DNA of 64,000 nt, taken from positions 15,314,001 through 15,378,000 of the forward strand of contig OZ360257.1 in NCBI GenBank assembly GCA_977017645.1. The letters are read 5' to 3'. The stretch comes from Torpedo marmorata (taxonomy: Eukaryota). The notes below the pieces were generated by a model. The model was given only the letters and a program-made list of their open reading frames with translations. It made no database searches and had not been told where the DNA came from. Made by a program: the position numbers and the translations under genes. Positions 5,470-60,872 of this stretch are shown here, one piece after another (the first letter of the stretch is position 1; every line of letters starts with the position of its first letter).

Positions 5470-6356
5470 GTAACCTGCTCTCGATTGTGGTCCTGTCCCG
5501 GGGAATGTGCGGCCTCTCCAAAGGAGTGACTCGTTACATGGTAACCATGGCCGTTGCAGACACAATGGTCTGTGTGTTTAACGTTACGGTGACAAACGTC
5601 TTCCGCTATCATTTTCCTCATTCATTCCTGGCACATACCTCCACTTGTCGTCTTATAGCCTTCATACAGATATTTAGCGTGCAATTCTCTGTCTGGGCCA
5701 CGGTATCGTTCACAGTGGACCGCTTCATTGCCATTTGTTGCCAGCATTTCAAAACAAAATATTGTACCGAAAGAAACGCCACGGTGGTTCTTACAACTGT
5801 GTGTCTGCTGAGTTTTTTGATGCACATTCCAGCTTATTTCCGGTATGAACCGCATTACATTGCGGGTGATGTCCAATGGGGCTGCCGTACTATAACACAA
5901 TATATTTATTCACCAGCATGGCAGACTTACAGATGGTTGTCTAAACTTATGGTACCACTGGTGCCGCTGCCGCTGATGTTGCTGTTGAATTCTCTCACCG
6001 TCCGACACATTTTACTTGTCAGCAGAGCTCGGAAGGCTTTGAAGCGCCGTGGGGACGGCGAGGTCTGTGATCCCGAGATGACGAACCGGAGAACGTCCAT
6101 TATATTGCTCTTCGCCATTTCTGGTAACTTCATTGCGTTGTGGACACCAGTTACGATAATTGACATATTTTACCAACTCACAACCTTTGCTGTCGACGCC
6201 CCGAAGTCACTGCTTCTGGCAATTAGAATCGCGATTCTGCTGATGTATTTGAGCTGCTGTACAAACACTTGTGTTTATGCATTGACACAGAGGAGATTCC
6301 GGGAGGAGGTGAAAAAAGTTGCAAATTATCCATTTATTGCCTTTGTATGGTTTTAA
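5470..6356 (+). CDS. gpr139-like: Family A GPCR copy 1, exon 2 (GPR139/GPR142-like class A 7TM; 315 aa spliced)
   Basis: Pyrimidine tract followed by TTACAG|GT at 5469/5470. Motifs: GN in TM1, MAVAD in TM2, C3.25, SVWATVSFTVDRFIAICC..KTKYCT, ECL2 WGC, NSLTVRHIL, FIALWTP in TM6, SCCTNTCVY and RFREE. The ORF-track start at 5424 is intronic. Confidence 0.93.
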
Positions 6357-14339: not shown

Positions 14340-15487
14340 ACTTTGCTGCCAATCGTCATTCTGTTCCATGTAATTTACGGCCTCTCAAAATGCATCACTC
14401 AGTGGTTGCTGGGAATGGCAGAAGCTGAATGAGTGGTTGTGAAACTGTATATGAATTGATTTTTTATGAGAGTAACGATCGGTATTTTCCACATTCAGAC
14501 TTCAATCAGACTTCTCTCTGGAGAGTTATTCTGACCATGTTATTTATTTCCATTGACGGTTCAATGTGACTAACTGTGGCTTTCATGTTCGATCGATTGT
14601 TTGCTATTTGTCACCAAACGTTACGAGCAAAATATTGCACAGAAAATAATTCATATGTAGCGAAAGCGCGGTGGAACTTTCCTCAACATTTGGAGAAAAC
14701 ACCATTTTATTTACTAACGTCGGGAAGTAATTGATAACGTTGAATTATCCTGCAATGTAATATCATGCTTTTACACCTTATGAATTTGAGCAGTTATTCT
14801 CTGGCAGTAAAAAGTCTTTAACGCATTTACTCTTTATGTCTTTATCTTGGCGCCACATTCCCTGACCATCAGCCGCATTATACCGGCTATCCGAGCGAGG
14901 AGCGAACTCCGAAGAAAGAACAACAATGGGAACCGCAGTGTCGCAGAGATGGGGAACCGCAGGAAACCGATAATGTTTCTGATGGTCATTTCCAGCACGT
15001 TTATTCTCTTCAGGATGGCTTTCATATGCGTGCAATTTACTGATACGCAGTTTTTGGAAGGAAGCTGCAATGATACCTTCACCATTGCGGGATTGTCGGG
15101 TTATATGCTGATGTTTTCGATTTCTTGCCCAATCCCATTGTTAACAATAGCGGTTAGAGCAACGCTATTTCAGCGCCAGCGACCCGGGTTCATTTCCGGC
15201 GCTACTGTAAGTAGTTTGTACATTCTCCCCATGTCAACGTGTGTTTCCTCCGTGCCCTCCGGTTTCCTCCCAAATAAAAAAAACGGAAGGAGGTTGAAAG
15301 TTAATTGTGGTATTTTGGTGGCATGTGCTCGTGGGCCGGAAGTGCCAGTTCCCGTTCCGTGTGCCACATTTAAAATTTAAAACACTTCATTGTTGCACTA
15401 TCCCAGAGAAAATTCAGAGAGGGTCTGAAGAATCTGGTAAAATGTCTAGTGACTCTTCTTACCAAGGCAAACAACTGCAAGGAATGA
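14340..15487 (+). pseudogene. Family B GPR139-like pseudogene (exon-2 equivalent) with stops, frameshifts and a SINE in TM7
   Basis: Hand translation: LLPIVILFHVIYGLSKCITQWLLGMA...YFPHS...SIDGSM*LTVAFMFDRLFAICHQTLRAKYCTE...LTISRI...EMGNRRKPI...GYMLMFSISC [SINE] ...ALSQRKFREGLKNLVK. TGA at 14567 replaces the TM3 Trp. Confidence 0.88.
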
Positions 15488-24824: not shown

Positions 24825-26530
24825 CGGGTGGCAGCGATAGTGGAGTCTTCGGGACGATACTTTGCCTCAGGGCCATGCTTGAAGTTCAGCTCAGCAAGGT
24901 CAAGTTTGAACCTCTTTTCAGAAGAGATGGATCTGATCTCGGCTTCCATATGACATCAACGTTATTAAAGTAAATGTGCACAAGTCTAAGTAGAGCAAAC
25001 ATGCAGTCTCATCGCGCTAATGCCACACTCTTAAAACTACCAGAGAAACGTGGTTCAATAATAATATAATTTCAGCAAATCAGAAGTGTCTGCTGTTCTG
25101 CCTTCAGATCAGAGAACATTATTAATCTAAATCTCTAAAAAGGGTAATATAGAGTATCCTGAGAATTACAGACAGGTGAGGCTTACGTCAGTGGTGTGAA
25201 AACTATCGGAGAGGATTCTTAAGGACACGATTTATGAGCATTTGGAGAAGTACAGTCGTCTGAGAGACATAAGCATGGCTTTGTGAGGGGATGGTCGTGC
25301 CTCATGAGCCTCATTGCATTTTCTGAGGAGATAACAAAATATATTGAGGAAAGTGTGACTTTAGACAAGGTACATATAGATTTCAGTGAGGCGTTTGACA
25401 AGGTTCCCCATGAAGGACTCGGTCAGAAAGACATCAGGCATTCTATCCACGGATTCTCAGCTGTGTGGATAAAAAATTGGCTTGCCTGTAGAAAGCAGAG
25501 GACGGCACAGAAAGTATTCTGTCTGGAAGTCAGTGACTAGTGGAGTTCCGCAGGGATATATTCTAGAACCCCAGCTCTTTGTGCATTTTATAAATGACCG
25601 AGATGAAGAGCGGAAGGGTGTGTCAGTAGGTTTGCAGATGATATAATGGTTGGAGGAGCTGCAGTTAGTGTTGAAGTTTGTCGTAGATTACAATGCAGAG
25701 ATGGGCGCAAAAGTGGCAGATCGACTTCAATCCGGATAAGTTTGTGAAGCATTTTGGAAGGTCAAACCTTGATGACTACAGCATTAATGGTCGGATACTT
25801 AAGAGTGTGGAGGAACAGAGGGACCTTGAAGTTCAAATCCATAGATCTCTCAATGTTTCCGCGCAGGTTGATAGGATAGTTAAGAAGGCGTAGGGATGCT
25901 GGGTTTCAATAATAGGGAGATTGAGTTCAATAGTATAGAGGTCATGTTGCAACTCTACACACCTCTGGTTAGACCATACTTATAGTATTTTATTCAGTTA
26001 TGGCCACATCGTTATAGGAAGGACGTGGAAACTGTGGAGAGGGTGCGGAGGAGATTTACCAGTGTATTGCCTGGATTGGAAAATGTCTTCCGAGGCAAGG
26101 TTAGTAGAGCAGGGACTTTTTTGTTTGGAGTGAAGAAGGATGAGAGGTGACTTAATCAAAGTCTACAAGAATATAGACAGTAGATAGGGAAGACAGCAAG
26201 CGCCTTTTCGCAGGGAGGGAATAGCAAACACCAGGGGACGTTTGCACAAAGTGAAGGGAGGAAGGTTGAGGGGAGATATCAGAGGTAAATTATTCTCACA
26301 GAGATGGAGGAGCCGGCAATGCTTTGCCAGGTTGGTGGTGGGGGCTGAATCATTTTGGGTATTTAAGAGACTCGTAGACAGGCACATGGATGAACGAAAT
26401 TAGAGGATTAAAAGTTTGGAAGGTTTCAGTATTTTCTTGGTAGGAATGTACAGATCGGCACAACATTGAAGGCCGAATAGCCAGTACTGTGCTGTCATGT
26501 TCCATGTTCTATGTTATATGTTTTGAAACT

Positions 26531-27680
26531 ATTTTGCTGCCAATCGTCATTCTGTTCCATGTAATTTACGGCCTCTCAAAATGCATCACTCAGTGGTTGC
26601 TGGGAATGGCAGAAGCTGACTGAGAAGTTGTGAAACTTTATATGAATTGATTTTATATGAGATTGACGATCGGTATTTTCCACATTCAGACTTCAATCAG
26701 ACTTCTCTCTGCAGAGTTATTCTGACCATGTTATTTATTTCCATTGACGGTTCAATGTGACTAACTGTGGCTTTCATGTTCGATCGATTTTTTGCTATTT
26801 GTCACCAAAATCTACGAGCAAAATATTGCACTGAAAATAATTCATCTGTAGCGAAAGCGCGGTGGAATTTTCCTCAACATTTGGAGAAAGCACCATTTTA
26901 TTCACTAACCTCGGGAAGTAATTGATAACGTTGAATTATCCTGCAATGTAATATCATGCTTTTACACCTTATGAATTTGAGCAGTTATTCTCTGGCAGTA
27001 AAAAGTCTTTAACTCATTTGCTCTTTATGTCTTTATCTTGTCGCCACATTCCCTGACCATCAGCCGCATTATACTGTCTATCCGAGCGAGGAGCAAACTC
27101 CGAAGAAGGAACAACAATGGGAACCGCAGTGTCGCAGAGATGGGGAACCGCAGGAAACCGATAATGTTGCTGCTGGTCATTTCCAGCACGTTTATTCTCT
27201 TCAGGATGGCTTTCATATGCGTGCAATTTACTGATAAGCAGTTTTTGGAAGGAAGCTGCAATGATACCTTCACCATTGCGGGATTGTTGGGTTATATGCT
27301 GATGTTTTCGAGTTCTTGCCCAATCCCATTGTTAACAATAGCGATCAGAGCAACGCTATTACAGCGCCAGCGACCCGGGTTCATTTCCGGCGCTACTGGA
27401 AGGAGCTTGTACATTCTCCCCATGTCCACGAGTGTTTCCTCCGTGCCCTCCGGTTTCCTCCCAAATAAAAAAAAAACGTAAGGAGGTTGAAAGTTAATTG
27501 TGATATTTTGGTGGGACGGGCTCGTGGGCCGGAAGTGCCTGTTCCCGTTCCCAACGCTAGATTTAAAATTTAAACCACTTCCTTGTTGCACTGTCCTAGA
27601 GAAAATTCAGAGAGGGTCTGAAGAACCTGGTAAAATGTCCAGTGACTCTTCTTACCAAGGCAAACAACTGCAAGGAATGA
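26531..27680 (+). pseudogene. Family B GPCR pseudogene copy
   Basis: Same sequence, same TM3 TGA and same SINE as 14340-15487. Confidence 0.87.
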
Positions 27681-33018: not shown

Positions 33019-36000
33019 TTCAGTTGGTACGGAACAAAGGAGACATTATTTCACTATCTTGGGACAAATACAGAAAACGCAGAGATTTCTCATCAGTCCT
33101 GGTCGTCTGTGCCAGATCTTTTAAGGAAATTCCGCTGGAGAGCAGAATCGAACGTCATCGGGTCAAGCAATTGCAAATTCGTTTCTTATTCAATTTTTAA
33201 AAAGGCAGTATCCCAAACACAGGCCGTGTCATATTTAATGTTCTGTAATATAACATAACAATAAAATAAACTTGAATCATCAATTTCGGGAGGATACAGA
33301 TCAGGTGAAAACTTGGACAGGGCGTTGCCAGCAGGACTTTAATACTGACAACTCCAAATAGTGCACGGCATATGCACTAAATGTTCCAGCAGGAAGGAAA
33401 CGTGATGAACAGAGAGACATGGGGGTCTGAATTCATAGTTGCCTGAAAGCAGCAACACGGTTTTTAGGGTGATGGTCCCTTCCTAGTTCATACGATCTCG
33501 AATTTCACAAACACTGTTCAGACTGTACTTGAAGTATTGTTTGCAGTTCTGGTCGCCACACTATTTATGTGATTGGACCGGAGATGTTGCAGAGGAAATT
33601 CACCAGGATGTTGCCTGGAAAGGAGGACGAGCTGTGGAAGGTGCTTAATAGGAAGGGGCCTATTTTCCCTGGAGCACAGCAGGTTTATGAGCGAGCTGGG
33701 AAATATAAGTAAGATGATGAGAGTCACCGATAGGGAAGATGTTCAAAACCTATTTCTAATGGCAGGGTTAACAAAAGTAAGTGGACACGAGTTTAAGGTT
33801 AATTTTAAGAGGGATCTGAGAGATTGTATTTTTAAACAGGCATATGAAGCAAAGAAATATGCTGGAGGAACTCAGTAGGTCGAGCATCATTCGTGGAGAA
33901 AGGAAACATCGACGTTTCGGGTCAGAACCCTTCATCACGTTTAATATTTGATTTGCTCTTCTCGGGGATGCGGTGAAGTCAGATATAATTCTCCAAACAC
34001 ATCAGTAAGGAAGCCACTGTTTCTTTGGGTGCTGCTCTTGACTCAATTACCTTCATGACGTTGTCTCTCTCGTATTCGGTGATGATCTATTTTATTACCC
34101 CGGACGTCTGCTCAACAGCAGAATTCCAGACAATGGGTTCTAATTTCCTTAACCATCACTATGAACAGTGGGATGACGAGCAGAACTCTCTTATCCAGCA
34201 GAACTGTTCCTGAATCAGCAAAAACGTAACAGGTTAATACTTGAAACTTGTGCTGCTTCCACTAGGCTCCATAATCATATGTGGGTTAATCTAAACATGA
34301 ACAATTTGTTGGAGAATTCGGAAAATCAATTTCAATTTGCTATTTTTCATCCGAATTATTTGATCTGATTTTTGTGTGGATTTCAGAACAATTATGTTTC
34401 CAACGCAAAGGCAAAATGATATAGTACTTTTCAAGATTCCAACCGCGTGAATTTAAACAATACTAAGTAACAGGCAAATCATCACAAGTTCTAGGGTTTG
34501 TTGGTTGTTTCACGAATCTATAAATACACATCGCCACTATAATAATGCGATGTGGATATATTTTCTTTGGAATTATACGTTTTCCTGATCGACATCAGCA
34601 GTTATGACTTGATTTAATCTATTTGCTCCAATGAAAATCTGCGAATAATGACAATCATTTTGTGTTCATGTGTCATTATGTGTCAGGCTTACTTTATTGA
34701 TAAGTCAGGCATTGCTGTGAATTCCATTAAGCCAGTGGTTTTCAAACTTATTATTTCCACTCACATACCACCTTATATAATCCCTCACTAATCACAGAGC
34801 AACTATGATATACGGATTACTTAATGTGGTGTGTGAGTTTGAAGAAAAAGTTTGAAAACCACTGCATTAAACTAAATGGCGCAACTGCATCTCATCTGTC
34901 CAATCATGGAGTGACCAGTAATTTTAGAGAACGAAAAAAATAACAATCCTATTCTTAGAATAGTTCGTGTACATCGTAAGCCATGTAACATCTGCTAAAT
35001 CATTTTTTCTTACTCGAGTTTTCAAGTCAAGTTTTTTGTCATCTGATTGTACAAGTACAACCCGACGAAACAGCGTTCCCTGGTGTAGGTGCAAAGCATG
35101 CAGACATACAACCAGACATAACACACATACAGACAAATAATACATATTTACGTCATACATATAATACATTTTAATGCACAGCTTCTCCAACCGGCGCAAT
35201 GCTCTTGTCCATTGAATAAACGCGTTGCTTTTGCTGACGTCAGTTCCCAAATTTATAGAAACAATTCCCAAGTGTTCGTGTTGCATTTCGATTTTTAATA
35301 TACTGCAGCAAAATGTGGTGACATAAAATTGAGGGAATTAATGGAAAATTGCTATTGGTTTAGCTTTGCACGTGGCGAAATAATTTGTAATGGTAGTCAA
35401 CCACTCAGAAAAGATCCCCGCATGCCGATCCAATATAAGGAGGTTATGTGCGCTACATTGCTTTATTTCAAAGAGATTTTCCGCCGCTCACGTTCAATTC
35501 AAGAAACAGTCTGGTGGCTTTTGTTTCCTCGAATTACCTCCAGCTAAAGGATTTGAGACAGCAGGATCAGAGCAGCCTGTGTGTTCCAAGTACAAGCAGC
35601 AGCTACATGGACCTTCCCAGTTCTCCAGACAGTTGTAGATCTCGATCAAAACAAGGCTGCAATACCATCCTTGGAACGAAAATTATCCATAATTATTTGG
35701 AGGATTTGGGCATGATTCGTCGTCTGATTTATGACTTCCACCAATTATAATGTGCAGCAAGATCATGAAAGAAATGCCTTAAATCAAAGACAACAACAGG
35801 AATAGCATTTGGAAAGAAAATTGAAAATAATTCCGAGGTCCAGGATGAATCCGCAGTTGGAGAAAAGGGGATTGATTAAGGGGAGATAGCATAGCTTTGT
35901 TGTTGGCAGATTATATACAACTAATTTTATGTTTGTTTCGAGGAACAGCTCAATGTATCGATGAGAGTACTGCAGTTGATGAAGTTGACACGAATTTCGG

Positions 36001-39037: not shown

Positions 39038-40186
39038 ACTTTGCTGCCAATCGTTATTCTGTTCCATGTAATTTACGGCCTCTCAAAATGCATCTCTCAG
39101 TGGTTGCTGGGAAAGGCAGAAGCTGACTGAGAAGTTGTGAAACTGTATATGAATTGATTTTATATGAGATTAACGATCGGTATTTTCCACATTCAGACTT
39201 CAATCAGACTTCTCTCTGTAGAGTTATTCTGACCATGTTATTTATTTCCATTGACGATTCAATGTGACTAACTGTGGCTTTCATGTTCGATCGATTTTTT
39301 GCTATTTGTCACCAAAATCTACGAGCAAAATATTGCACTGAAAATAATTCATCTCTAGCGAAAGCGCGGTGGAATTTTCCTCAACATTTGGAGAAAGCAC
39401 CATTTTATTCACTAACCTCGGGAAGTAATTGATAACGTTGAATTATCCTGCAATGTAATATCATGCTTTTACACCTTATGAATTTGAGCAGTTATTCTCT
39501 GGCAGGAAAAAGTCTTTAACTCATTTGCTCTTTATGTCTTTATCTTGACGCCACATTCCCTGACCATCAGCCGCATTATACTGGCTAACCGAGCGAGGAG
39601 CAAACTCCGAAGAAGGAACAACAATGGGAACCGCAGTGTCACAGAGATGCGGAACCGCAGGAAACCGATAATGTTGCTGCTGGTCATTTCCAGCACGTTT
39701 ATTCTCTTCAGGATGGCTTTCATATGCGTGCAATTTACTGATAAGCAGTTTTTGGAAGGAAGCTGCAATGATACCTTCACCATTGCGGGATTGTCGGGTT
39801 ATATGCTGATGTTTTCGAATTTTTGCCCAATCCCATTGTTAACAATAGCGGTTAGAGCAACGCTATTTCAGCGCCAGCGACCCGGGTTCATTTCCGGCGC
39901 TACTGACAGGAGCTTATACGTTCTCCCCATGTCTACGTGTGTTTCCTCCGTGCCCTCCGGTTTCCTCCCAAATAAAAAAAAAAGTAAGGAGGTTGAAAGT
40001 TAATTGTGGCATTTTGGTGGCACGGGCTCGTGGGTCGGAAGTGCCTGTTCCCGTTCCGTATGCTACATTTAAAATTTAAACCACTTCATTGTTGCACTGT
40101 CCCCGAGAAAATTCAGAGAGGGTCTGAAGAATCTGTTGAAATTTCCAGTGACTCTTCTTACCAAGGCAAACAACAGCAAGGAATGA
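39038..40186 (+). pseudogene. Family B GPCR pseudogene copy
   Basis: Same lesions as the other family B copies. Confidence 0.87.
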
Positions 40187-40726: not shown

Positions 40727-42778
40727 TAATATAAATGGGATTAAAGTAGGTGCAGAAGAGCATAAAATTAGTCTGTTTGCAGATGATGTATTAATATATA
40801 TGACAAAATCTATTAAATCACTTCAACAATTAGATAAGATATTGAGGGATTATGGTGAGATATCTGGATATAAAATAAATTCGGATAAAAGTGAGATAAT
40901 GGCTCTATCTCAAGGAGACTATACTAAATGTAAAGAAGTTACAAAATTTAAATGGGCTAAAGAAACAATTAAATATTTGGGAGTTAAAGTAGATACAAAA
41001 TTAGAAAATTTATATAAATCAAATTATATACCTTTATTTCAGAAAATAAAGAAAGATTTGGATAATTGGAAAGATTTACCTATAACTTTAATGGGAAGAG
41101 TGAATTGTATTAAAATGAATATTTTTCCAAGAGTTCAATATCTTTTTCAATCTATACCTTATGGTATTCCTCAAAAATTTTTTAAAGATTTAAAAATTAT
41201 TATTAGAAAGTTTTTATGGAAAGGAAAATTGGCAAGGGTAAGTATAGATAAATTAACTTGGGAATATGAAATGGGTGGATTACAACTTCCTAATTTTCAA
41301 TATTATTATAAGGCAGCACAATTAAAATTTATAAATGAATTTTTTGATTTAACTAAAAATACGGCTTGGATTAATATAGAATTGAGTAATATAGGGGAAA
41401 GATATAAGGAAGATATTATTTATAAATGGAATTCCAAATTATTATTGATTAAAAAGAAAAAGTCACCGATTATTAAACACTTATTGGAAATTTGGAATCA
41501 GCTAGATAATGAAATAGGACGAAAAGGATCAATATCTTTAAATATGCCATTATATCAGAACCTATTGTTACCTTTTTCTATTGATAATCAATTTTTAAAA
41601 TTATGGTATCAAAAAGGAATTAAGAAGATTAAAGATTGTTTTGAGGCAGGAAGATTTGTTACTTTTTCTAGATTGAAGGAAAAATTTGGAATAATGGACA
41701 ATACAATTTTGGCTTATTATCAGGTTAAAGGATTTTTAGTTGAGAAATTAGGGATCAATTAATATCTCCTAGACAAGATGGGTTAGAGTTACTAATTACT
41801 AATGGAAATGTTAATAAATTTATATCACAAATGTATAAATTACTTCAGAGAAAGATGCCTAAAGTAGGACTACATAAATCTAGATTAAATTGGGAGTCAG
41901 ATTTAAATATTAGTATAGACGAACAACATTGGAAAGAACTATGTAAATTGAGTATGACTAAAATTATTAATGTTAGATATAGATTAGTACAATATAACTT
42001 TTTCCATCAATTATATATAACACCTAAAAAATTAAAGAAATTTAATCCGGCATTATCAGATATGTGTTTTAGGTGTAAAGATGAAATAGGTTCTTTTGTA
42101 CACTGTACATGGTCATGTTTAAAAATTCAAAATTTTTGCTCTAAAGTTAAGGATTTTTTAGATAGAATTTTTAATATTACGATTCCAATGGTCCCTATGA
42201 TATTTCTATTTGGAGATATTAAAAAAATTAATATTAGAAATAGATTGAATATGTATCAAATAGAATTTTTACGAATTGTGTTAGCGATTTCAAAAAAATG
42301 TATCGCTATTACTTGGAAATCAGATTTAGATTTGAATTTGGATAGATTACATGCAGAGTTACGCACGTGTATACCATTGGAAAAAATTACCTATAATCTA
42401 CGAGATAAATACCATTTCTTTTTGAAAATTTGGAGCCCATATATAAGAATTATGGGTATGAATTAATTCTCTAAAAGTTAGTAACGCTGACAAAAGTAAC
42501 CTCCAATATATAAGTAGAGTTAGCTTGTAATGGTTTTCTCCTCATACTAACTCTCATAACTTTATTATTCATTCTATTTTTTTTTTCTTTTAACTAATAC
42601 TTTTTTTTCATATTTTTCTTTTTCTTTTATTAGAATAGTGAGGGAGGGTTGGGGAGGGGAGGGTGGGAGGGGGGGAGGTAATATATCACATGTATTTTGA
42701 ATAATATACTATTTTTGATATATGTATTTTGTGATTTTAAAAATTAAATACAATTATTTAAAAAAAATAAAAAAAAAA
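40727..42778 (+). mobile_element. 5'-truncated L1-clade LINE (ORF2 3' half, 3'UTR, poly(A)) with an 11-bp TSD; present in one unit only
   Basis: RT core SLFADDVLIY and YLGV; C-terminal CFRC..GSFVHCTWSC zinc knuckle. One frameshift at ~41760. T-rich then G-rich 3'UTR and an A tail at 42760-42778. TSD CCTTGCTCCAT at 40716-40726 and 42779-42789. The empty site is seen in other units (e.g. ~16017). Confidence 0.95.
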
Positions 42779-44152
42779 CCTTGCTCCATATGACATGGTC
42801 TCCAATCCAGGCAATAGAATATCTTGATAAATATCTGCACCCTATCTAATGCATCTACATAATTGCAGTAACAAAGCGACCAGAACTGAACGCAATATTC
42901 CAAGTGTGGTCTCACCAGAGTTTTATGGGTCTGCAAAATTTCCTCCTGGCTTTTATCCGACGAACGAAGGCCAACCCATCATATACCTTCTTGACCAGCG
43001 CGTCAACTAGCGCAGCAATCTTGAGGGTGTATTAACATGGACCCCAAGATCTCCTAGTTCCTCCAAACTGTTAGAATCCTGCCATTAACACGCACTGCAC
43101 CTTCGATTCGACATCCAAAATGCACTACACTTAACCGTAATGAACTCAATCTGCCACTTCTCTGTCCAACTCCGCATCCTGTCTACATCCCGTTATAACC
43201 CGCGACAGCCTTCTGCACTCCCGACAACACTGTGAACCGTTGTATCATTAGCAAATGCAAAGAAAATAGAGCATAGAAAGAAACTCTCTGATTGGACTTG
43301 ATGCCTTCGAACCAACCCTCAGCGTTGATGCATTACCGCAAATACCACAGGCGATCCAAACACTCCTCGGATCTGTGTGGCGTTTGCAACAAAAATTAAC
43401 TCAGCATTTCAAGCGGGACGGTTCACGTCACAGTTCATCGCAACACATTCACAGCGTCAGCGACGGGGGTTCAAATACAGCGCTGCCCTGGAAGGAGTTT
43501 TATTTCTTTCCCTCGTGAACTGCTCTAATTCCCCGGGTACCCTGGTTTCTTCCCACTCACGAAAAAATGTATGGGATTGACATGTTCATTGGATGTAATT
43601 TGGCAGCACGGGCTTCATGAGCTAAGGGTCTGTATATTTTAAATAAAAGTTCAGTCAAGCCATCATGGCAGACGACGAGTGAAAACAAATCCTCAGGTCA
43701 GACCGACTGATGAACGTTTGAAAACTCATGGGAACAAAGTTATTTTCAGGTGTATAATAATGAAAAGGAAAATATATGTGATAATCAGGATCATTGGGAA
43801 CAAACAACGGAGAGAATCGCGAACAAGTCACCCCAGGGACGAGGTTAAAGCGAAGCAAATGGAGATAGATGAACGCGACACTCCAGTGTCACGGTTCCAC
43901 GTCAGGTGATGCAGCGAGCTCGCACCTGAACCTTGTTTATTACGATAACTCGTGTTAGTTACTCTGGGCGGAGCGATCTCAGGTCATTAAGTGAGAATGA
44001 ACTGATAGTCTTTGTTAAATCGAGTATGTGGAGGTGTTATGTAATTTAGTGTCCCAGGAGAACAGCTGTCCTATAAATTAGGCTTCACAGTGAAACTCTT
44101 CGTTTTCACATATTCACATGTGCTGTAGAGAAACCGCTCTTATCCTCAAAAG

Positions 44153-44213
44153 ATGCCACGAATGGAAGCCACGGAGATCTTCTATCCCATTCTTGCAATT
44201 GTCGGCATTCCTG
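44153..44213 (+). CDS. gpr139-like: Family A unit-4 exon 1 (MPRMEATEIFYPILAIVGIP+G); its own exon 2 is deleted
   Basis: Both ATGs, the TATA box and the GTAAGT donor (44214) are intact. The downstream acceptor tract is broken at 45438. Confidence 0.75.
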
Positions 44214-46567
44214 GTAAGTGATTTTGCTGCGATCTCCGCCGAGTGTTTTCTGGTTGTCCGTATTCNNNNNNNNNNNNNNNNNNNNNNNNNNNNNNNNNNN
44301 NNNNNNNNNNNNNNNNNNNNNNNNNNNNNNNNNNNNNNNNNNNNNNNNNNNNNNNNNNNNNNNNNNNNNNNNNNNNNNNNNNNNNNNNNNNNNNNNNNNN
44401 NNNNNNNNNNNNNNNNNNNNNNNNNNNNNNNNNNNNNNNNNNNNNNNNNNNNNNNNNNNNNNNNNNNNNNNNNNNNNNNNNNNNNNNNNNNNNNNNNNNN
44501 NNNNNNNNNNNNNNNNTCGTCGCTCAGCCAGGATTTAAATAATCTTTTGACCTGAAGTTGTAGAAGTTAGACAATGTCCAGTCACTTCGATCATATGATA
44601 GATTCTGCAATCCAGGCAACACCTTTGCACACTCTCCACAGCATCCAGATATTTCCTATAAGGAGGCAACCATAACTGAACGCCATGATTTGAACTGTAT
44701 ATCTTCACGTGTCCGGGGAAAAGTGAAAAGGCGTTATTTTGCCTGCTATCCAGGCAAATCAAGCCACATAAAATACAGGAGGCAGCGCAAGGATAAAAAT
44801 AGAACAGGTGATAGTGTTACAATAAAGTACAGCATGACGTGTTAAAGACAGGAGTGCTGTTAGTCTATGTAAGTCTTTACCTTTTCCTCGTGAGAGGGCT
44901 ATTCAAGAGCCTGCCATCAGGAATGTAAGTGCCCTTGAATCTGGTTGGGTGCGTTTTTTTCGAAACTCGTGCTTCTTCTGCCCGGCGGCAGGGAGATGGA
45001 GAGACTGCGGTAGGGGTGGAACAGATTCGTGAACATGTACAGTGATTATTTATCCCGGAGATGGCGGGAGATATGAACGCAGTTTATGGTCGGGGGATTG
45101 ACTTATTGATAACACTGAATTGCGTTAATTTCTCTTCTTAGTTTCTTGTGACGCCGACCGTAGCAGTTTCCACACCAATCTGTGATGCACCCGCACCGGA
45201 CACTTTCTATTGTTCATCTGCACACAACGGACAGGGTCAACGGGGGCATGCCGAAATTCCTCAGCTTCTGAGGAAGTGAAAGCGTTGTTGCTCTTTCCAT
45301 TCCGTAGTGCCAATGTAATGTTGGCAACTGCATAATTTACAGGAACATACAAATGTTTCGATTAGTTTATTCCCAAAGATTCCTTTGATACAATTATGTT
45401 AAAGGTGTTGGCTTGTTTTTCTGGTGTTTCCTGGTTTTTCAAAACCAGGCTGCAATACCATCCTAGGAACGAAAATTATCCATATTTATTTGGAGGAATT
45501 GGGCATGTTTCGTCGTCTGATTTGTAACTTCCACCAAGTATAATGTGCAGCAAGATCATGAAGAAAATACCTTAAATCAAAGACAACGACAGGAACAGCA
45601 TTTGGAAAGGAAATTGAAAATAATTCCGAGGTCCAGGATGAATCCGCAGTTGGAGAGAAGGGGATTGATTAACGGGAGTTAGCATAGCTTTTTTGTTGGC
45701 AGATTATATACAACCAATTTTGTGTTTGTTTCGAGGAACAGCTCAATGTATCGATGAGAGTACTGCAGTTCATGAAGTTGACACGAATTTCGGTACGACC
45801 CTGTCAAATATCCAGATAATGGGCTTGCACGGTTAGCGTAGCGGTTAGTGCAACACATTTACAGGGCCAGTGTCACGGGTTCGAACCCGGCCCTGTCTGT
45901 GAGGAGTTTGTCCGTTCTCCATGTGTCTGCGTGGGTTTCCTCCGGGTGATCCTGTTTCCTCCCACCCTTTAAAACGTAGTTTATTGGGTTATCTGAGCGG
46001 CACATGCTGTGGGCCAGAAAGGCCTGTTACGGTGCTGTATGTCTAAATAATGCACTGGTCCACAGTTCAAGGGATCAAATGCAATTTTGAAATTCGGATT
46101 CAATGTTTGCCTCGTAACAGAAGGTAATAGTTCATGGTGGAAAATTGAATATAGAATATAAGAATCTTCAACGTAGTATAGGCAATTTGGGTCACAGTGT
46201 TATGCCAACCTGATAATCTCCGCTTCCAAGAATTCCGAGAATTTCCGTCCTTTATAACGATCATTTTCTCTCTGTTCCATGCACCAATATACTAGACTCT
46301 TAAAATATCCTAATGAACCTGCCTGTAAAACAGTTGCCAGCAGTGAATCCCATGCACCCATTACTCTGTGTGTGAAGATTGTGCCTCTAACCCTCCCCAT
46401 GTACTTACTCCGAAGCACTTTTAAACGCCCCCCCCCGCCTGAATGGAGGTTTTCCTTTGCGTGTGGAAACCTTTCTTCCACAGTGCCAAAACGTCAAACT
46501 ATTGGGGGGACTCATCGGATTGAACAGCGTGTGTGTGTGTGTTTCTGTATGTGTGTGTGTGTGTGTG

Positions 46568-46610
<43 letters not shown>

Positions 46611-48318
46611 CGGGTGGCAGCGATAGTGGAGTTTTCGGGACGATACATTTCCTCAGGGCCATGCTTAAAGGTCAGCTCAGCAAGGTCAGGTTTGACCCTC
46701 TTTTCAGGAGCGCTGGATCTGATCTCGGCTCCCATGACATCAACGTTATTAAAGTAAATGCGCACAAGTCTAAGTAGAGCAAACATGCAGTCTCATCGCG
46801 CTTATGCCACTCTCTTAAACCTTCCAGAGAAACGTGGTTCAATAATAATATAATTGCAGCAAATCACGAAGTGTCTGCTGTTCTGCCCTTCAGATCAGAG
46901 AACATTATTAATCTAAATCTCTAAAAAGGGTAATAGAGAGAATCCTGAGAATTACAGACAGGTGAGGCTGACGTCAGTGGTGTGAAAACAATTGGAGAGG
47001 ATTCTTAAGGACAGGATTTATGAGCATTAGGAGAAGTACAGTCGTCTGAGGGACATAAGCATGGTTTTGTGAGGGGATGGTCGTGCCTCATGAGCCTCAT
47101 TGCATTTTCTGAGGAGAAATCAAAACATAATGAGGAAAGTGTGACGGTAGACCAGGTACATATGGATTTGAGTGAGGCGTTTGACAAGGTTCCCCATGAA
47201 ATACTGGATCAGAAAGGCATCAGGCATTCTATCCACGGAATCTTGGCTGTGTGAATAAAAAATTGGCTTGCCTGTAGAAAGAAGAGGACGGAACAGAAAG
47301 TATCCTGTCGGAACATCAGTGGCTAGTGGAGTTCCGCAGGGATGTTTTCTTCAACCCTTGCTCTTTGTGATTTTTGTAAATGACCTAGATGAAGAGCGGA
47401 AGCGTGGGTCAGTAGGTGTGCAGATGATATAATGGTTGGAGGAGCTGCAGTTAGTGTTGAAATCTGTCGTAGATTGCAATGCAGAGATGGGCGCAAAAGT
47501 GGCAGATCGAGTTCAATCCGGATAAGTTTGTGAAGCATTTTGGAAGGTCAAACCTTGCTGAATACAGCATTAATGGTCGGATACTTAAGAGTGTGGAGGA
47601 AGAGAGGGACCTTGAAGTTAAAATCCATACATCTCTCAATGTTTCCGCGCAGGTTAATAGGATAGTTAAGAAGGCCTATGGGATGCTGGGTGTCAATAAT
47701 AGGGGGATTGCGTTCAATAGTATAGAGGTCATGTTGCAAATCAACACACCTCTGGTGAGACCATACTTATAGTATTTTATTCAGTTATGGCCACATCGTT
47801 ATGGGAAGGATGTGGAAACTGTGGAGAGGGTGCGGAGGAGATTTACCAGGGTATTGCCTGGATTGGAAAATGTCTTATGAGGCAAGGTTAGTAGAGCAAG
47901 GACTTTTCTATTTGGAGCGAAGAAGGATGAGAGGTGACTTCATAAAAGTCTACAAGAATATATACAATAGATAGGGTAGACAGCAAGCGCTTTTTCGCAG
48001 GGAGGGAATAGCAAACACCAGGGGACGTATGCACAAAGTGAAGTGAGGAAGGTTGAGGGGAGATATCAGAGGTAAATTATTCACACAGTAATGGAGGTGC
48101 CGGCAATGCCTTGCCAGGTTGGTGGTGGGGGCTGAAGCATTTTGGGTATTTAAGAGACTCGTAGACAGGCACATGGATGAACGAAAATTAGAGGATTAAG
48201 TGGTTGAAAGGTTTCAGTATTTTCTTGGTAGGAATATACAGGTCGGCACAACATTGAAGGCCGAATAGCCTGTACTGTGCTGTCGTGTTCCATGTTCTAT
48301 GTTCTATGTTTTGAAACT

Positions 48319-48882
48319 ACTTTACTGCCAATCGTCATTCTGTTCCATGTAATTTACTGCCTCTCAAAATGCATCACTCAGTGGTTGCTGGGAATGGCAG
48401 AAGCTGACTGAGAAGTTGTGAAACTGCACATGAATTGATTGTATATGAGATTAAAGATTGGTATTTTCCACATTCAGACTTCAATCCGACTTCTCTCTGT
48501 AGAGTTATTCTGACGATTTTATTTATTTCCATTGACTGTTCAATGTGACTAACTGTGTCTTTCATGTTCGATCGATTTTTTGCTATTTGTCACCAAACGC
48601 TCCGAGCAAAATATTGCACTGAAAATAATTCATCTGTAGCGAAAGCGCGGTGGAATTTTCCTCAACATTTGGGAAAAAACACCATTTTATTTATTAACCT
48701 CGGGAAGTAATTGATAACGTTGAATTATCCTGCAATGTAATATCATGCTTTTACACCTTATGAATTTGAGCAGTTATTCTCTCGCAGGAAACAGTCTTTA
48801 ACTCATTTGCTCTTTATGTCTTTATCTTGGCGCCACATTCCCTGACCATCAGCCGCATTATACTGGCTAACCGAGCGAGGAG
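48319..48882 (+). pseudogene. Family B GPCR pseudogene copy, 3' part deleted
   Basis: Matches family B up to CCGAGCGAGGAG, then jumps into the minus-strand CR1 (GCCAACCCACC). Confidence 0.83.
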
Positions 48883-50708
48883 GCCAACCCACCACACACC
48901 TTCTTGACCAGCGCGTACACTAGCGCAGCAACCTTGAGGGGTGTATTAACATGGACCCCAAGATCTCTCAGTTCCTCCAAACTGTTAGAACTTCTGCCAT
49001 TAACACGCACTCCGCCTTCGATTCGACCTCCAAAGTGCACTACACTTAACCGTATAGAACTCAATCTGCCAATTCTCTGCCCAACTCCGCATCCTTTCTA
49101 TATCCCGTTATAACCCACGACAGCCTTCTGCACTCCCGACAACACTGTGAACCGTTGTATCATTAGCAAATGCAAAGAAAATAGAGCACAGAAAGAAATT
49201 CTCTGATTGGACTTGATGCCTTCGAACCAACCCTCAGCGTTGATGCATTACCCCAAATACCACAGGCGATCCAAATACTCCTCGGATCTGTGTGGCGTTT
49301 GCAACAAAAATTAACTCAGCATTTCAAGCGGGACGGTTCACGTCACAGTTCAGCGCAACACATTCACAGCGTCAGCGACGCGGGTTCAAATACAGCTCTG
49401 CCCTGGAAGGAGTTTTATTGCTCTCCCTCGTGAACTGCTCGGTTTCCCCGGGTACTCTGGTTTCTTCCCACTCACGAAAAAAAGTATGGGTTTGGCATGT
49501 TCATTGGATGTAATTTGGCAGCACGGGCACTTGCGGAGCTGCATGACGTGGTCAGTAAACAGGCCCACCCCGAGACAATTCCAGTCACAGTCGTTGACTT
49601 TAATCAGGCCTGTCTTAAGAGAGCCCTGCGCAAGTATCACCAGCACGTAACCTGCTGTACCAGAGGCACCAGCTCATTTGAACATTGCGACAACAACATA
49701 AGGAATGCCTACGTTCTTTCATGATAGAGCAGGTTGGTGTTTGCTGTCCACCCCATCTAAACCCCTCATGATGTTGTCTACCCCCAATAATTCACCTCTT
49801 CCCCTTCATCGCTGCAGAGAAAAGCCCCAGCTCTGTCAACCTTCCTTCATATGATAGGTTCTGCAATCCAGGCAACACCTTTGCACACTCTCCAGAGCAT
49901 CCATATATTTCCTATAATGAGGCAACCATAACTGAACGCAACGATTTGAACTGTTTATCGTCACGTATCCGGGGAAAAGTGAAAAGGCGTTATTTTGCCT
50001 GCTATCCAGGTAAATCAAGCCACATAAAATACAGCAGGCAGTGCAAGGATAAAAATAGTACAGATGATAGTGTTACAATAAAGTACAGCATGACGTGTTA
50101 AAGACAGGAGTGCTGTTAAGCTATGCAAGTCATTACCTTTTACTCTTGATAGGTCTATTCAACAGCCTGCCAGCAGGAATGTAAGTGACCTTGAATCTGG
50201 TTGGGTGCGTTTCTTCCAAACTCGTGCTTCTTCTGCCCGGCGGCTGGGAGAAGGAGAGACTGCGGGAGGAGTGGAACAGATTCTTTAACATGTATAGTGA
50301 TTATTTATCTGGGAGACGGCGGGAGATATGAACGAAGTCGATGGACGGGGGATTGGATTATTGATAACACTGAATTGCGTTCATTACTCTCCGTGGTTTC
50401 GTAAGACTCCGAGCTCAGCAGTTTCCACACCAATCTGTGATGCACCCGTACCGGACACTTTCTATTGTTCATCTGCACACAACGGACAGGGTCAACGGGG
50501 GCATGCCGAAATTCCTCAGCTTCTGAGGAAGTGAAAGCGTTGCTGCGCTTCCCATTCCGTAGTGCCCATGTAATGTTGGCAACTATATAATTTACAGGAA
50601 CATACAAATGTTTCGATTAGGTTATTCCCAAAGATTCCATTGTAACAATTATGTTAAAGGTGTTGGCTTGATTTTCTGGTAGTTTCCTGGTTTTCCATCT
50701 TGTTACAG

Positions 50709-51622
50709 GTAACCTGCTCTCGATTGTGGTCCTGTCCCGGGGAATGTACGGCCTCTCCAAAGGAGTGATTCGTTACATGGTAACCATGGCAGTTGCAGAC
50801 ACAATGGTCTGTGTGTTTAACGTTACAGTGATATTCGTCTTCGGCTATCATTTTCCTCATTCATTCCTGGCACATACCTCCACTTGTCGTCTTACAGACT
50901 TCATACAGAAATCCAGCGTGCAATTCTCTGTCTGGGCCACGGTATCGTTCACAGTCGACCGCTTCATTGCCATTTGTTGCCAGCAATTCAAAACAAAATA
51001 TTGTACCGAAAGAAACGCCACGGTAGTTCTTACGACTGTGTGTGTGCTGAGCTTTTTGATGAACATTCCAGTTTATTTCCGGTATGAACCCCATTACATT
51101 GCGGGTGATGTCAAATGGGGCTGCAGTACTATAACACGATATATTTCTTCACCAGCATGGCATACTTACAGATGGTTGTCTAAACCTATGGTACCACTGG
51201 TGCCCCTGCCGCTGATGTTGCTGTTGAATTCTCTCACCGTCCGACACATTTTACTTGTCAGCAGAGCTCGGAGGGCTTTGAAGAGCCGTGGGGACGGTCA
51301 AGTGTTTGATACCGAGATGACGAACCGGAGAACGTCCATTATATTGCTCTTCGCCATTTCTTGTACCTTCATAGCGTTGTGGACACCGGTTACGATAATT
51401 GACCAATACTTCCATCTCACATTAAGCTTTTCGATCGACGCCCCGAAGTCACTGCTTCTGGCAATTAGAATCACGATTCTGCTGATGTATTTGAGCTGCT
51501 GTACAAACACTTGTGTTTATGCAATGACACAGAGGAGATTCCGGGATGAGGTGAAGAAGGTGGCAAAATATCCATTTATTGCCCTTGTACGGTTTTTAAA
51601 ACCTATGACGCAGCAACAATGA
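50709..51622 (+). CDS. gpr139-like: Family A unit-5 exon 2 (intact 914 nt); its own promoter and exon 1 are deleted, probable partner of exon 1 at 44153
   Basis: Acceptor TTACAG ends at 50708. No stop or frameshift before TGA at 51620-51622. Confidence 0.85.
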
Positions 51623-57600: not shown

Positions 57601-59728
57601 TGGGCCATAGTTTTATGCCAACCTTATAATCTCCGCTTCCAAGAATTCCGAGAATTTCCGTCCTGTATAACGCTCATTTTCTCTCTGTTCCATGCACCAA
57701 TATACTCGTCTCTAAAAATATCCTATTGTACCTGCCTCTAAAACAGTTGCCAGCAGTGAATTCCACGCACCCATTCCTCTCTGTGTGAAGATTGTACCTC
57801 TAACCCTCCCCATGTACTTATCCGAAGCACTTTTAAAGGCCCCCCCCCCGGCTGAATGGAGATTTTCCTTTGCGTGTGGAAACCTTTCTTCCACAGTGCC
57901 AAAACGTCAAACTATTGGGGGGACTCAGCGGATTGAACAGCGTGTGTGTGTGTGTGTTTCTGTATGTGTGTGTTTGTGTTTTGTGTGTGTGTGTGTGTGT
58001 GTGAGTGTGTGAGTGGGCGGGTGTCAGCGATAGTGGAGTTTTCGGGACGATACTTTGCCTCAGGGCCATGCTTGAAACTCAGCTCAGCAAGGTCAAGTTT
58101 GACCCTCTTTTCAGAAGAGATGAATCTGATCTCGGCTTCCATATGACATCAACGTTATTAAAGTAAATGCGCACAAGTCTAAGTAGAGCAAACATGCAGT
58201 CTCATCGCGCTTAAGCCACACTCTTAAAACTACCAGAGAAACGTGGTTCAATAATAATAATATAATTTCAGCAAATCACGAAGTGTCTGCTGTTCTGCCT
58301 TCAGATCAGAGAACATTATTAATCTAAATCTCTAAAAAGGGTAATAGAGAGTATCCTGAGAATTACAGACAGGTGAGGCTTACGTCAGTGGTGTGAAAAC
58401 TATCGGAGAGGATTCTTAAGGACACGATTTATGAGCATTTGGAGACGTACAGTCGTCTGAGAGACATAAGCATGGCTTTGTGAGGGGATGGTCGTGCCTC
58501 ATGAGCCTCATGGCATTTTCTGAGGAGATAACAAAATATATTGAGGAAAGTGTGCCTTTAGACAAGGTACATATGGATTTCAGTTAGGCGTTTGACATGG
58601 TTCCCCATGAAAGACTCGGTCATAAAGACATCAGGCATTCTATCCACGGAATCTCAGCTGTGTGGATAAAAAATTGGCTTGCCTGTAGAAAGCAGAGGAC
58701 GGAACAGAAAGTATTCTGTCTGAACATCAGTGACTAGTTGAGTTCCGCAGGGATATATTCTAGAACCCCTGCTCTTTGTGCATTTTATAAATGACCGAGA
58801 TGAAGAGCGGAAGGGTGTGTCAGTAGGTTTTCAGATGATATAATGGTTGGAGGAGCTGCAGTTAGGGTTGAGGTTTGTCGTAGATTACAATGCAGAGATG
58901 GGCGCAAAGGTGGCAGATCGACTTCAATCCGGATAAGTTTGTGAAGCAGTTTGGAAGGTCAAACCTTGATGAATACAGCATTAATGGTCGGATACTTAAG
59001 AGTGTGGAGGAACAGAAGGACCTTGAAGTTCAAATCCATAGATCTCTCAATGTTTCCGCGCAGGTTGATAGGATAGTTAAGAAGGCCTAGGGATGCTGGG
59101 TTTCAATAATAAGGAGATTGAGTTCAATAGTATAGAGGTCATGTTGCAACTCTACACACCTCTGGTTAGACCATACTTATAGTATTTTATTCAGTTATGG
59201 CCACATCGTTATTGGAAGGATGTGGAAACTGTGGAGAGGGTGCGGAGGAGATTTACCAGTGTATTGCCTGGATTGGCAAATGTCTTCCAAGGCAAGGTTA
59301 GTAGAGCAGGGACTTTTTTGTTTGGAGTGAAGAAGGATGAGAGGTGAATTAATCAAAGTCTACATGAATATAGACAGAAGATAGGGAAGACAGCAAGCGC
59401 CTTTTCGCAGGGAGGGAATAGCAAACACCAGAGGACGTATGCACAAAGTGAAGGGAGGAAGGTTGAGGGGAGATATCAGAGGTAAATTATTCACACAGAG
59501 ATGGAGGAGCCGGCAATGTTTTGCCAGGTTGGTGGTGGGGGCTGAATCATTTTGGGTATTTAAGAGACTCGTAGACAGGCACATGGATGAACGAAAATTA
59601 GAGGATTAAAAGTTTGGAAGGTTTCAGTATTTTCTTGGTAGGAATATACAGATCGGCACAACATTGAAGGCCGAATAGCCAGTACTGTGCTGTCATGTTC
59701 CATGTTCTATGTTCTATGTTTTGAAACT

Positions 59729-60872
59729 ATTTTGCTGCCAATCGTCATTCTGTTCCATGTAATTTACGGCCTCTCAAAATGCATCACTCAGTGGTTGTTG
59801 GGAATGGCAGAAGCTGACTGAGAAGTTGTGAAACTGTTTTTGAATTGATATGAGATTAACGATCGGTATTTTCCACATTCACACTTCAATCAGACTTCTC
59901 TCTGTAGAGTTATTCTGACCATGTTATGTCTTTCCATTGACGGTTCAATGTGACTAACTGTGGCTTTCATGTTCGATCGATTTTATGCTATTTGTCACCA
60001 AACGCTACCAGCAAAATATTGCACTGAAAATAATTCATCTGTAGCGAAAGCGCGGTGGAATTTTCCTCAACATTTGGGATAAAACACCATTTTATTTACT
60101 AACGTCGGGAAGTAATTGATAACGTTGAATTATCCTGCAATGTAATATCATGCTTTTACACCTTATGAATTTGAGCAGTTATTCTCTGGCAGTAAAAAGT
60201 CTTTAACTCATTTACTCTTTATGTCTTTATCTTGGCGCCACATTCCCTGACCATCAGCCGCATTATACTGGCTATCCGAGCGATGAGCAAACTCCGAAGA
60301 AAGAACACCAATGGGAACCGCAGTGTCGCAGAGATGGGGAACCGCAGGAAACCGATAATGTTGTTGCTGGTCATTTCCAGCACGTTTATTCTCTTCAGGA
60401 TGGCTTTCATATGCGTGCAATTTACTGTTGCGCATATTTTTGAAGGAAGCTGCAATGATTCCTTCACCATTGCGGGATTGTCGGGTTATATGCTGAAGTT
60501 TTCGATTTCTTGCCCAATCCCATTGTTAACAACAGCGGTTAGAGTAACGCTATTACAGCGCCAGCGACCCGGGTTCATTTCCGGCGCTACTGGAAGGAGC
60601 TTGTACGTTCTCCCCATGTCTACGAGTGTTTCCTCCGTGCCCTCCGGTTTCCTCCCAAATAAAAAAAAACGTAAGGAGGTTGAAAGTTAATTGTGGTATT
60701 TTGGTGGGACGGTCTCGTGGGCCGGAAGTGCCTGTTCCCGTTCCAATGCTAGATTTAAAATTTAAACCACTTCCTTGTTGCACTGTCCCAGAGAAAATTC
60801 AGAGAGGGTCTGAAGAATCTGGTAAAATGTCCAGTGACTCTTCTTACCAAGGCAAACAACTGCAAGGAAAGA
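59729..60872 (+). pseudogene. Family B GPCR pseudogene copy
   Basis: Same lesions as the other family B copies. Confidence 0.87.

Follow-up and report, generated by a model that had tools for sequence, protein, structure and literature searches.

A hybrid GPR139-like receptor gene in a tandem array of Torpedo marmorata, probably a product of array contraction

The window analysed here is a 64,000-nt stretch of Torpedo marmorata DNA (assembly GCA_977017645.1, contig OZ360257.1, positions 15,314,001 to 15,378,000, forward strand), and it consists of a head-to-tail array of G-protein-coupled receptor (GPCR) genes in which one locus combines parts of two units. At this locus the promoter and exon 1 of unit 4 stand before exon 2 of unit 5, and in the resulting gene model no stop or frameshift disables the frame and no splice site is missing. 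Judging from its sequence, the hybrid is probably an ordinary contraction product of a birth-and-death tandem array, novel neither in mechanism nor in the protein it would encode. Four non-homologous deletions, collinear and with 1–3 nt of microhomology, would have taken ~9.2 kb out of two adjacent complete units; they may have arisen by end joining or replication slippage and either as one multi-jump event or serially. The net outcome would be the one expected from unequal crossing-over within the intron, with one gene fewer and the unit-4 promoter and exon 1 placed before the unit-5 exon 2; unlike a clean crossover, it would leave three islands of old DNA in place as a 6.5-kb intron.

Structure of the hybrid locus

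Self-comparison divides the window into units of ~13.8 kb that are 88–96% identical to one another. In each intact unit a promoter with a TATA box is followed by a coding exon 1 of 61 nt, a phase-1 intron of ~1.8 kb and a terminal exon 2. Every segment of the hybrid locus (Table 1) is collinear with the intact units at 88–96%, so the arrangement cannot be put down to chance. Exon 1 runs in frame into exon 2 over an intron of 6495 nt to give 324 aa, the length of copies 2 and 3; the splice from 44213 to 50709, the open 914-nt exon 2 and the agreement in length with copy 2, all proposed in a first-pass annotation of this DNA, hold at every coordinate. The 5' part of the intron includes a 251-nt run of unread Ns that is collinear on both sides, and an N run stands at the same place of the intron in three other units. 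The large spacer island contains a GT microsatellite, a high-copy repeat (~46900–48310) and a truncated older GPCR pseudogene (~48320–48881).

Since exon 1 is near-identical in all copies (20 residues, with 0–2 positions different among the five), the hybrid product would be the receptor of unit 5 and no new protein. The hybrid is thus unit 5's receptor with its promoter swapped to that of unit 4, and the exon recombination suggested in the annotation is not supported. Divergence between copies over the promoter and exon 1 is 1.7–6.3%. The exon 2 of unit 5 alone holds an ATG-initiated open reading frame (ORF) of 292 aa from 50744, as do copies 2 and 3, so that gene calling would give one more short model here and not the pair of pseudogenes that an ORF finder had been expected to report.

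Exon 1 carries two in-frame ATGs, at codons 1 and 4. Units 1 and 4 retain both, the first is now ATA in units 3 and 6 (29569, 62763) and the second has been lost in unit 2 (17392); one of the two is probably enough for a start.

Table 1. Features of the hybrid locus and of the array, in window coordinates (TM1, first transmembrane segment)
Feature	Position	Strand	Remarks
Putative TATA box (TATAAA), unit-4 promoter	44072..44077	+	same place in 5/5 promoter copies
Exon 1, unit 4	44153..44213	+	ATG; 20 codons + 1 nt, encoding the N-terminal part of TM1; followed by donor GTAAGT
Deletion A junction	44584..44585		intronic, 660 nt lost; 2-nt microhomology
Unit-4 intron, retained 3' part	44585..45438	+	most of pyrimidine tract kept; 87.8–91.6% to other units
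Deletion B junction	45438..45439		6012 nt lost relative to unit 1; 1-nt microhomology
Retained spacer island, now intronic	45439..48881	+	
Candidate cryptic acceptor CAG/G	45446..45449	+	spacer-derived; put behind unit-4 pyrimidine tract by deletion B
Deletion C junction	48881..48882		1303 nt lost (3' part of old pseudogene); 2-nt microhomology
Retained island 5' of lost unit-5 promoter	48882..49525	+	94–95% to other units
Deletion D junction	49526..49528		1204 nt lost (unit-5 promoter, exon 1, donor); 3-nt microhomology (GGC)
Candidate donor-like CAG/GTAAAT	50007..50015	+	unit-5-private GC>GT at 50009/10; GC in 5/6 homologous sites
Unit-5 acceptor, intact	50680..50708	+	29 nt identical to intact copies; ACAG ends at 50708
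Exon 2, unit 5	50709..51622	+	914 nt open; 7tm_1 class A GPCR
AATAAA	52512..52517	+	same place in 4/4 units; probable polyadenylation signal
Exon 1 starts, five copies	3623, 17392, 29569, 44153, 62763		
Exon 2 starts, four copies	5470, 19217, 31415, 50709		
Older GPCR pseudogenes	~14360–15380, ~26530–27480, ~39040–40000, ~48320–48881, ~59690–60690		in spacers

Four deletion junctions and the ancestry of the units

When the jumps and lost lengths are mapped against the intact unit 1, all four deletions are forward, collinear and on the same strand. Deletion B removed the unit-4 acceptor AG, exon 2, the conserved AATAAA and part of the spacer, and its junction puts spacer sequence directly after the unit-4 intron, which lacks its last ~14 nt with the AG. 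The annotation had placed two of the junctions correctly, at 45438/45439 and at 49526–49528 (with the GGC microhomology and a loss close to the 1204 nt measured here), and had missed the other two, at 44584/44585 (660 nt) and 48881/48882 (1303 nt). Its claim that complementary deletions fused two units stands as regards the two units, the complementary effect and the cis elements, but the deletions number four and not two. Four starts this close would occur by chance with P=0.07 for five events or 0.17 for six; since this clustering is not significant, serial simple deletions fit equally well, and a 1.7-kb deletion common to units 2 and 3 indicates that such losses recur.

The signature given for microhomology-mediated break-induced replication and fork stalling and template switching (MMBIR/FoSTeS) in the consulted part of PMC2621351 is one of clustered junctions with 2–5 nt of microhomology near low-copy repeats. 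The locus resembles it in having several close junctions with short microhomology beside low-copy repeats, and differs from it in having forward collinear jumps only, with neither inversion nor triplication. The overlaps are 2–3 nt at three of the four junctions and 1 nt at the remaining one, which also fits end joining or chance.

Hybrids formed within a tandem array by successive deletions, with use of pseudogene sequence and switched promoters, are known from the KIR genes (KIR2DL3/2DP1 and KIR2DL1/2DS1), where, according to the consulted part of PMC2816608, transcription was confirmed by reverse transcription PCR and the typical exon structure is kept. As in those hybrids, the promoter and 5' part of one paralogue stand in frame with the 3' exons of the next, with splice sites present. 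Unlike what that part of the source describes, the locus has four out-of-register joins with 1–3 nt of overlap, and so is not the product of a homologous crossover; its enlarged intron holds formerly intergenic islands, at most 1–2 residues are changed, and the hybrid transcript is a predicted one.

An array of ~14-kb units that are 88–96% identical is prone to misjoins, exon 1 is separated from the junctions by a stretch of unread Ns, and the junctions are known solely from the assembly, so an assembly artefact has to be weighed. The joins, however, fall at non-homologous positions with 1–3 nt of overlap and outside the long shared repeats, and each retained island carries private substitutions of its own (0.97–3.29 per 100 nt), from which it follows that no island was copied from another unit in the window. 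Together these private substitutions and out-of-register joins argue against misassembly, which we regard as very improbable. Among sequencing runs compared with the segment 46700–52050, which covers junctions C and D only, no RNA run was listed, and a single DNA run (X1) had a fraction of 0.13 of the words of that segment. The run returned short contigs of ~88–94% identity, from a relative or from paralogues; none of the 15 of 36 joints listed falls at 48881 or 49527, none of the listed pieces spans these positions, and the run is uninformative either way.

That two original units were involved is suggested by the trees. The segments of units 4 and 5 are not sisters in any of the four free segment trees, and a sister clade is rejected on the concatenated shared segments (approximately unbiased test, p-AU 0.0045), a result driven by one of the four, the longest (p-AU 3.5e-7). 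That two different units contributed to the hybrid is the better reading of these trees, with gene conversion as a caveat. The alternative is that unit 5 never had a promoter and that 49526–49528 marks the backward jump of a partial tandem duplication 12.6 kb long, which would have given one gene two terminal exons, the first of them deleted later. Where units are repeated in tandem, a forward deletion of 1.2 kb leaves the same junction as a backward duplication of 12.6 kb, and sisterhood is not rejected in the other three segments (p-AU 0.07, 0.49 and 0.14). Beside the rejections just given, the divergence of 8.2% between the two intron copies is similar to that of other pairs of units, although later gene conversion could blur this comparison; we consider such a duplication improbable.

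Groupings also change along the array. The promoters pair units 2 and 4 and units 3 and 6, exon 2 pairs units 2 and 3, and one spacer segment groups the spacers of units 2 and 5 and those of units 3 and 4, with the informative sites lying in tracts. The intact genes are thus also mosaics of ancestry, and mixed ancestry is the norm in this array. Short unit-1 tracts occur in the unit-4 intron and the unit-5 exon 2 as well, which suggests gene conversion.

Splicing potential and constraint on the receptor

Promoter activity and splicing of the hybrid are predictions from its cis elements, and the splice-site scores are simple counts of matches to the consensus, in place of a trained model. The unit-4 donor agrees with the consensus at 8 of 9 positions, and the TATA box, the ATG, the unit-5 acceptor and the AATAAA at 52512 are intact. 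Because the AATAAA of unit 4 has been removed, read-through into unit 5 is possible. A competing candidate acceptor was made by deletion B at 45446–45449, with 13 pyrimidines in 20 positions compared with 16 in 20 at the true site; splicing to it (45448/45449) would give a predicted product of 51 aa. Sites of this kind are common and mostly ignored, since a crude filter, with true sites counted, passes 25 AG sites in the 6495-nt intron and 12 in that of the intact unit 2. Candidate pseudo-exons with strong donors number 14, of which two keep the frame. If the locus is indeed a product of array contraction, we lean slightly towards some correctly spliced hybrid transcript being made.

Unit 4 shows six private changes in the interval −700..+105. 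Three of them (−104, −95 and −89; 44049–44064) lie close together, in the ~25 nt immediately 5' of the TATA box, at positions on which the remaining four promoters are in agreement. These three changes could alter promoter activity.

The coding sequence of unit-5 exon 2 gives a mixed picture of constraint. Private pN/pS is 0.83 for unit 5 vs. 0.57, 0.70 and 0.35 for the other copies, and pairwise dN/dS is 0.62–0.73 in pairs with unit 5 vs. 0.50–0.61 in pairs without it. Unit 5 has four changes at residues conserved in at least 70% of the 47 closest relatives (C34Y, R160S, P222T and G239C), compared with 1, 1 and 2 in the other copies, and L180P introduces a proline where the sequence aligns to the fifth transmembrane segment; C34Y, P222T, G239C and L180P are found in none of these 47 relatives. 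In a neutrality test that left out changes judged ancestral (six in unit 5, eight in unit 1), 4 of the 16 derived changes of unit 5 fall at conserved residues, against a neutral expectation of 5.2–5.4 (P=0.33–0.36), while each of the other three copies is depleted of such changes (P≤0.051 each). A Fisher test gives p=0.067 at the conservation threshold of 0.7; the threshold of 0.6 (p=0.022) was chosen after L180P had been seen at 0.66, and we rely on 0.7 and on a threshold-free score. The open frame is itself weak evidence of constraint, since at the number of changes in this exon a frame without a stop has a probability of ~0.57 under neutrality.

Several results weigh against reading the locus as a contraction product adrift from selection. 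With the threshold-free score, the comparison of unit 5 with the other copies is weak and depends on the setting (p=0.014, 0.037, 0.051 and 0.125), unit 5 itself differs from the neutral expectation in three of four settings (P=0.011–0.044; 0.38 in the fourth), and the intact unit 2 is indistinguishable from neutral in all four (P=0.069–0.16). Whole-protein profile scores are alike (523.7 bits for unit 5 vs. 525.6, 526.2 and 541.5). There is no indel in unit-5 exon 2, where ~1 would be expected had the exon been neutral over its whole branch; in the non-coding segments, 24 private indels were counted over ~21 kb of unit-branches. As to the candidate acceptor, no donor that reaches 6/9 of the consensus lies within 380 nt of it, and the 1.3 kb after it are free of A(A/T)TAAA. 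Exon definition disfavours an acceptor that lacks a nearby donor or polyadenylation signal, so use of this one is disfavoured. Relaxed constraint on unit-5 exon 2 is for these reasons a lean and not a result. Under the contraction reading it is possible, if rather doubtful, that the receptor is still held by selection; failing that, the locus would be a pseudogene of recent origin, drifting with its frame still open.

The intact cis elements, the open frame without indels and the possible read-through past the lost unit-4 AATAAA would also suit a true rescue, as the annotation had proposed, in which deletion D silenced unit 5 and deletion B, by removing the unit-4 exon 2 and polyadenylation signal, later gave the unit-5 exon 2 a working promoter, after which the hybrid was expressed and maintained. 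A silent period would account for the excess of changes at conserved residues, and KIR2DL3/2DP1 offers a transcribed precedent. Against it, expression of the hybrid is a prediction, the order of the deletions is unreadable from one haplotype, the candidate acceptor at 45448 and the new candidate donor at 50009 could compete with correct splicing, and four of the changes in the receptor occur in none of the closest relatives. We consider this rescue unlikely, and a functional chimera is more than the competing acceptor and the weak signs of relaxed exon-2 constraint allow us to claim. Somewhat less likely still is a resurrection caught in the act, in which a silenced, promoterless exon would have been revived by a later out-of-register deletion and a 6.5-kb, mostly formerly intergenic intron would be spliced. 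Were it true, the junction-made acceptor would be skipped and the otherwise forbidden C34Y, L180P, P222T and G239C would be fixed in a working receptor from a large family that seems to have been studied little. If the contraction product that we favour is expressed, it would illustrate cleanly how a tandem array can lose a copy while a promoter is exchanged and how an intron can form out of intergenic DNA, and it would be a modest test of how exon definition passes over an acceptor made by a junction.

The receptor family and other features of the array

The exon 2 product is a class A GPCR (7tm_1, PF00001, 70.8 bits against a cut-off of 30.5). Its best protein match, at 79%, is a 'probable GPR139' of the electric ray Narcine bancroftii; there are 562 matches in all, and of the 120 listed every named one belongs to a cartilaginous fish. 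Human GPR139 is only distantly similar (49.7 bits, E 3e-12), while cartilaginous-fish paralogues score 250–514 bits, and the high conservation expected of an orthologue was not found; the array genes are thus probably paralogues under an automatic 'GPR139' label. Exon 1 matches the N-terminus of the database relative P0050 (tblastn), and by a strict motif its TM1 sequence is joined to the start of exon 2 in 29 of the 120 listed relatives, which makes it a real coding exon. Database models often omit the short first exon; among the 47 closest, 29 begin inside exon 2.

The family is much expanded in cartilaginous fishes, and its models include some with misleading database names (opioid, melatonin and C5a receptor-like). 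In open main texts we found no paper dedicated to the GPR139-like paralogues of cartilaginous fishes, and the consulted parts of PMC12294341, PMC11979771 and PMC8455134 do not treat them. With hundreds of such paralogues in cartilaginous fishes, the family itself is the more interesting background to the locus.

Unit 1 (exon 2 at 5470–6356) is the most divergent gene of the array, by 12% in the intron and 14–15% in the 3' flank, and its product is 315 aa long owing to a one-codon deletion and an earlier stop. In every spacer lies a further member of the superfamily, an older GPCR pseudogene with frameshifts, so that the duplicated unit is a gene together with a dead gene. These pseudogenes are ~25–47% identical to distant relatives (tblastn), and the start of their exon 2 adjoins the 3' tail of a high-copy repeat. 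The joins of the 1.7-kb spacer deletion common to units 2 and 3 look slightly different (22054/22056 vs. 34298–34300). Rfam gave no match at the gathering threshold within the window. A 5'-truncated long interspersed nuclear element of 2 kb (40727–42776) is confined to the unit-3 spacer, with a poly(A) tail, a target-site duplication of ~11 nt and two long open stretches, of which the first (387 aa) matches RVT_1 and the second is 240 aa long; a 71% relative of this element lies inverted at 481–1138.

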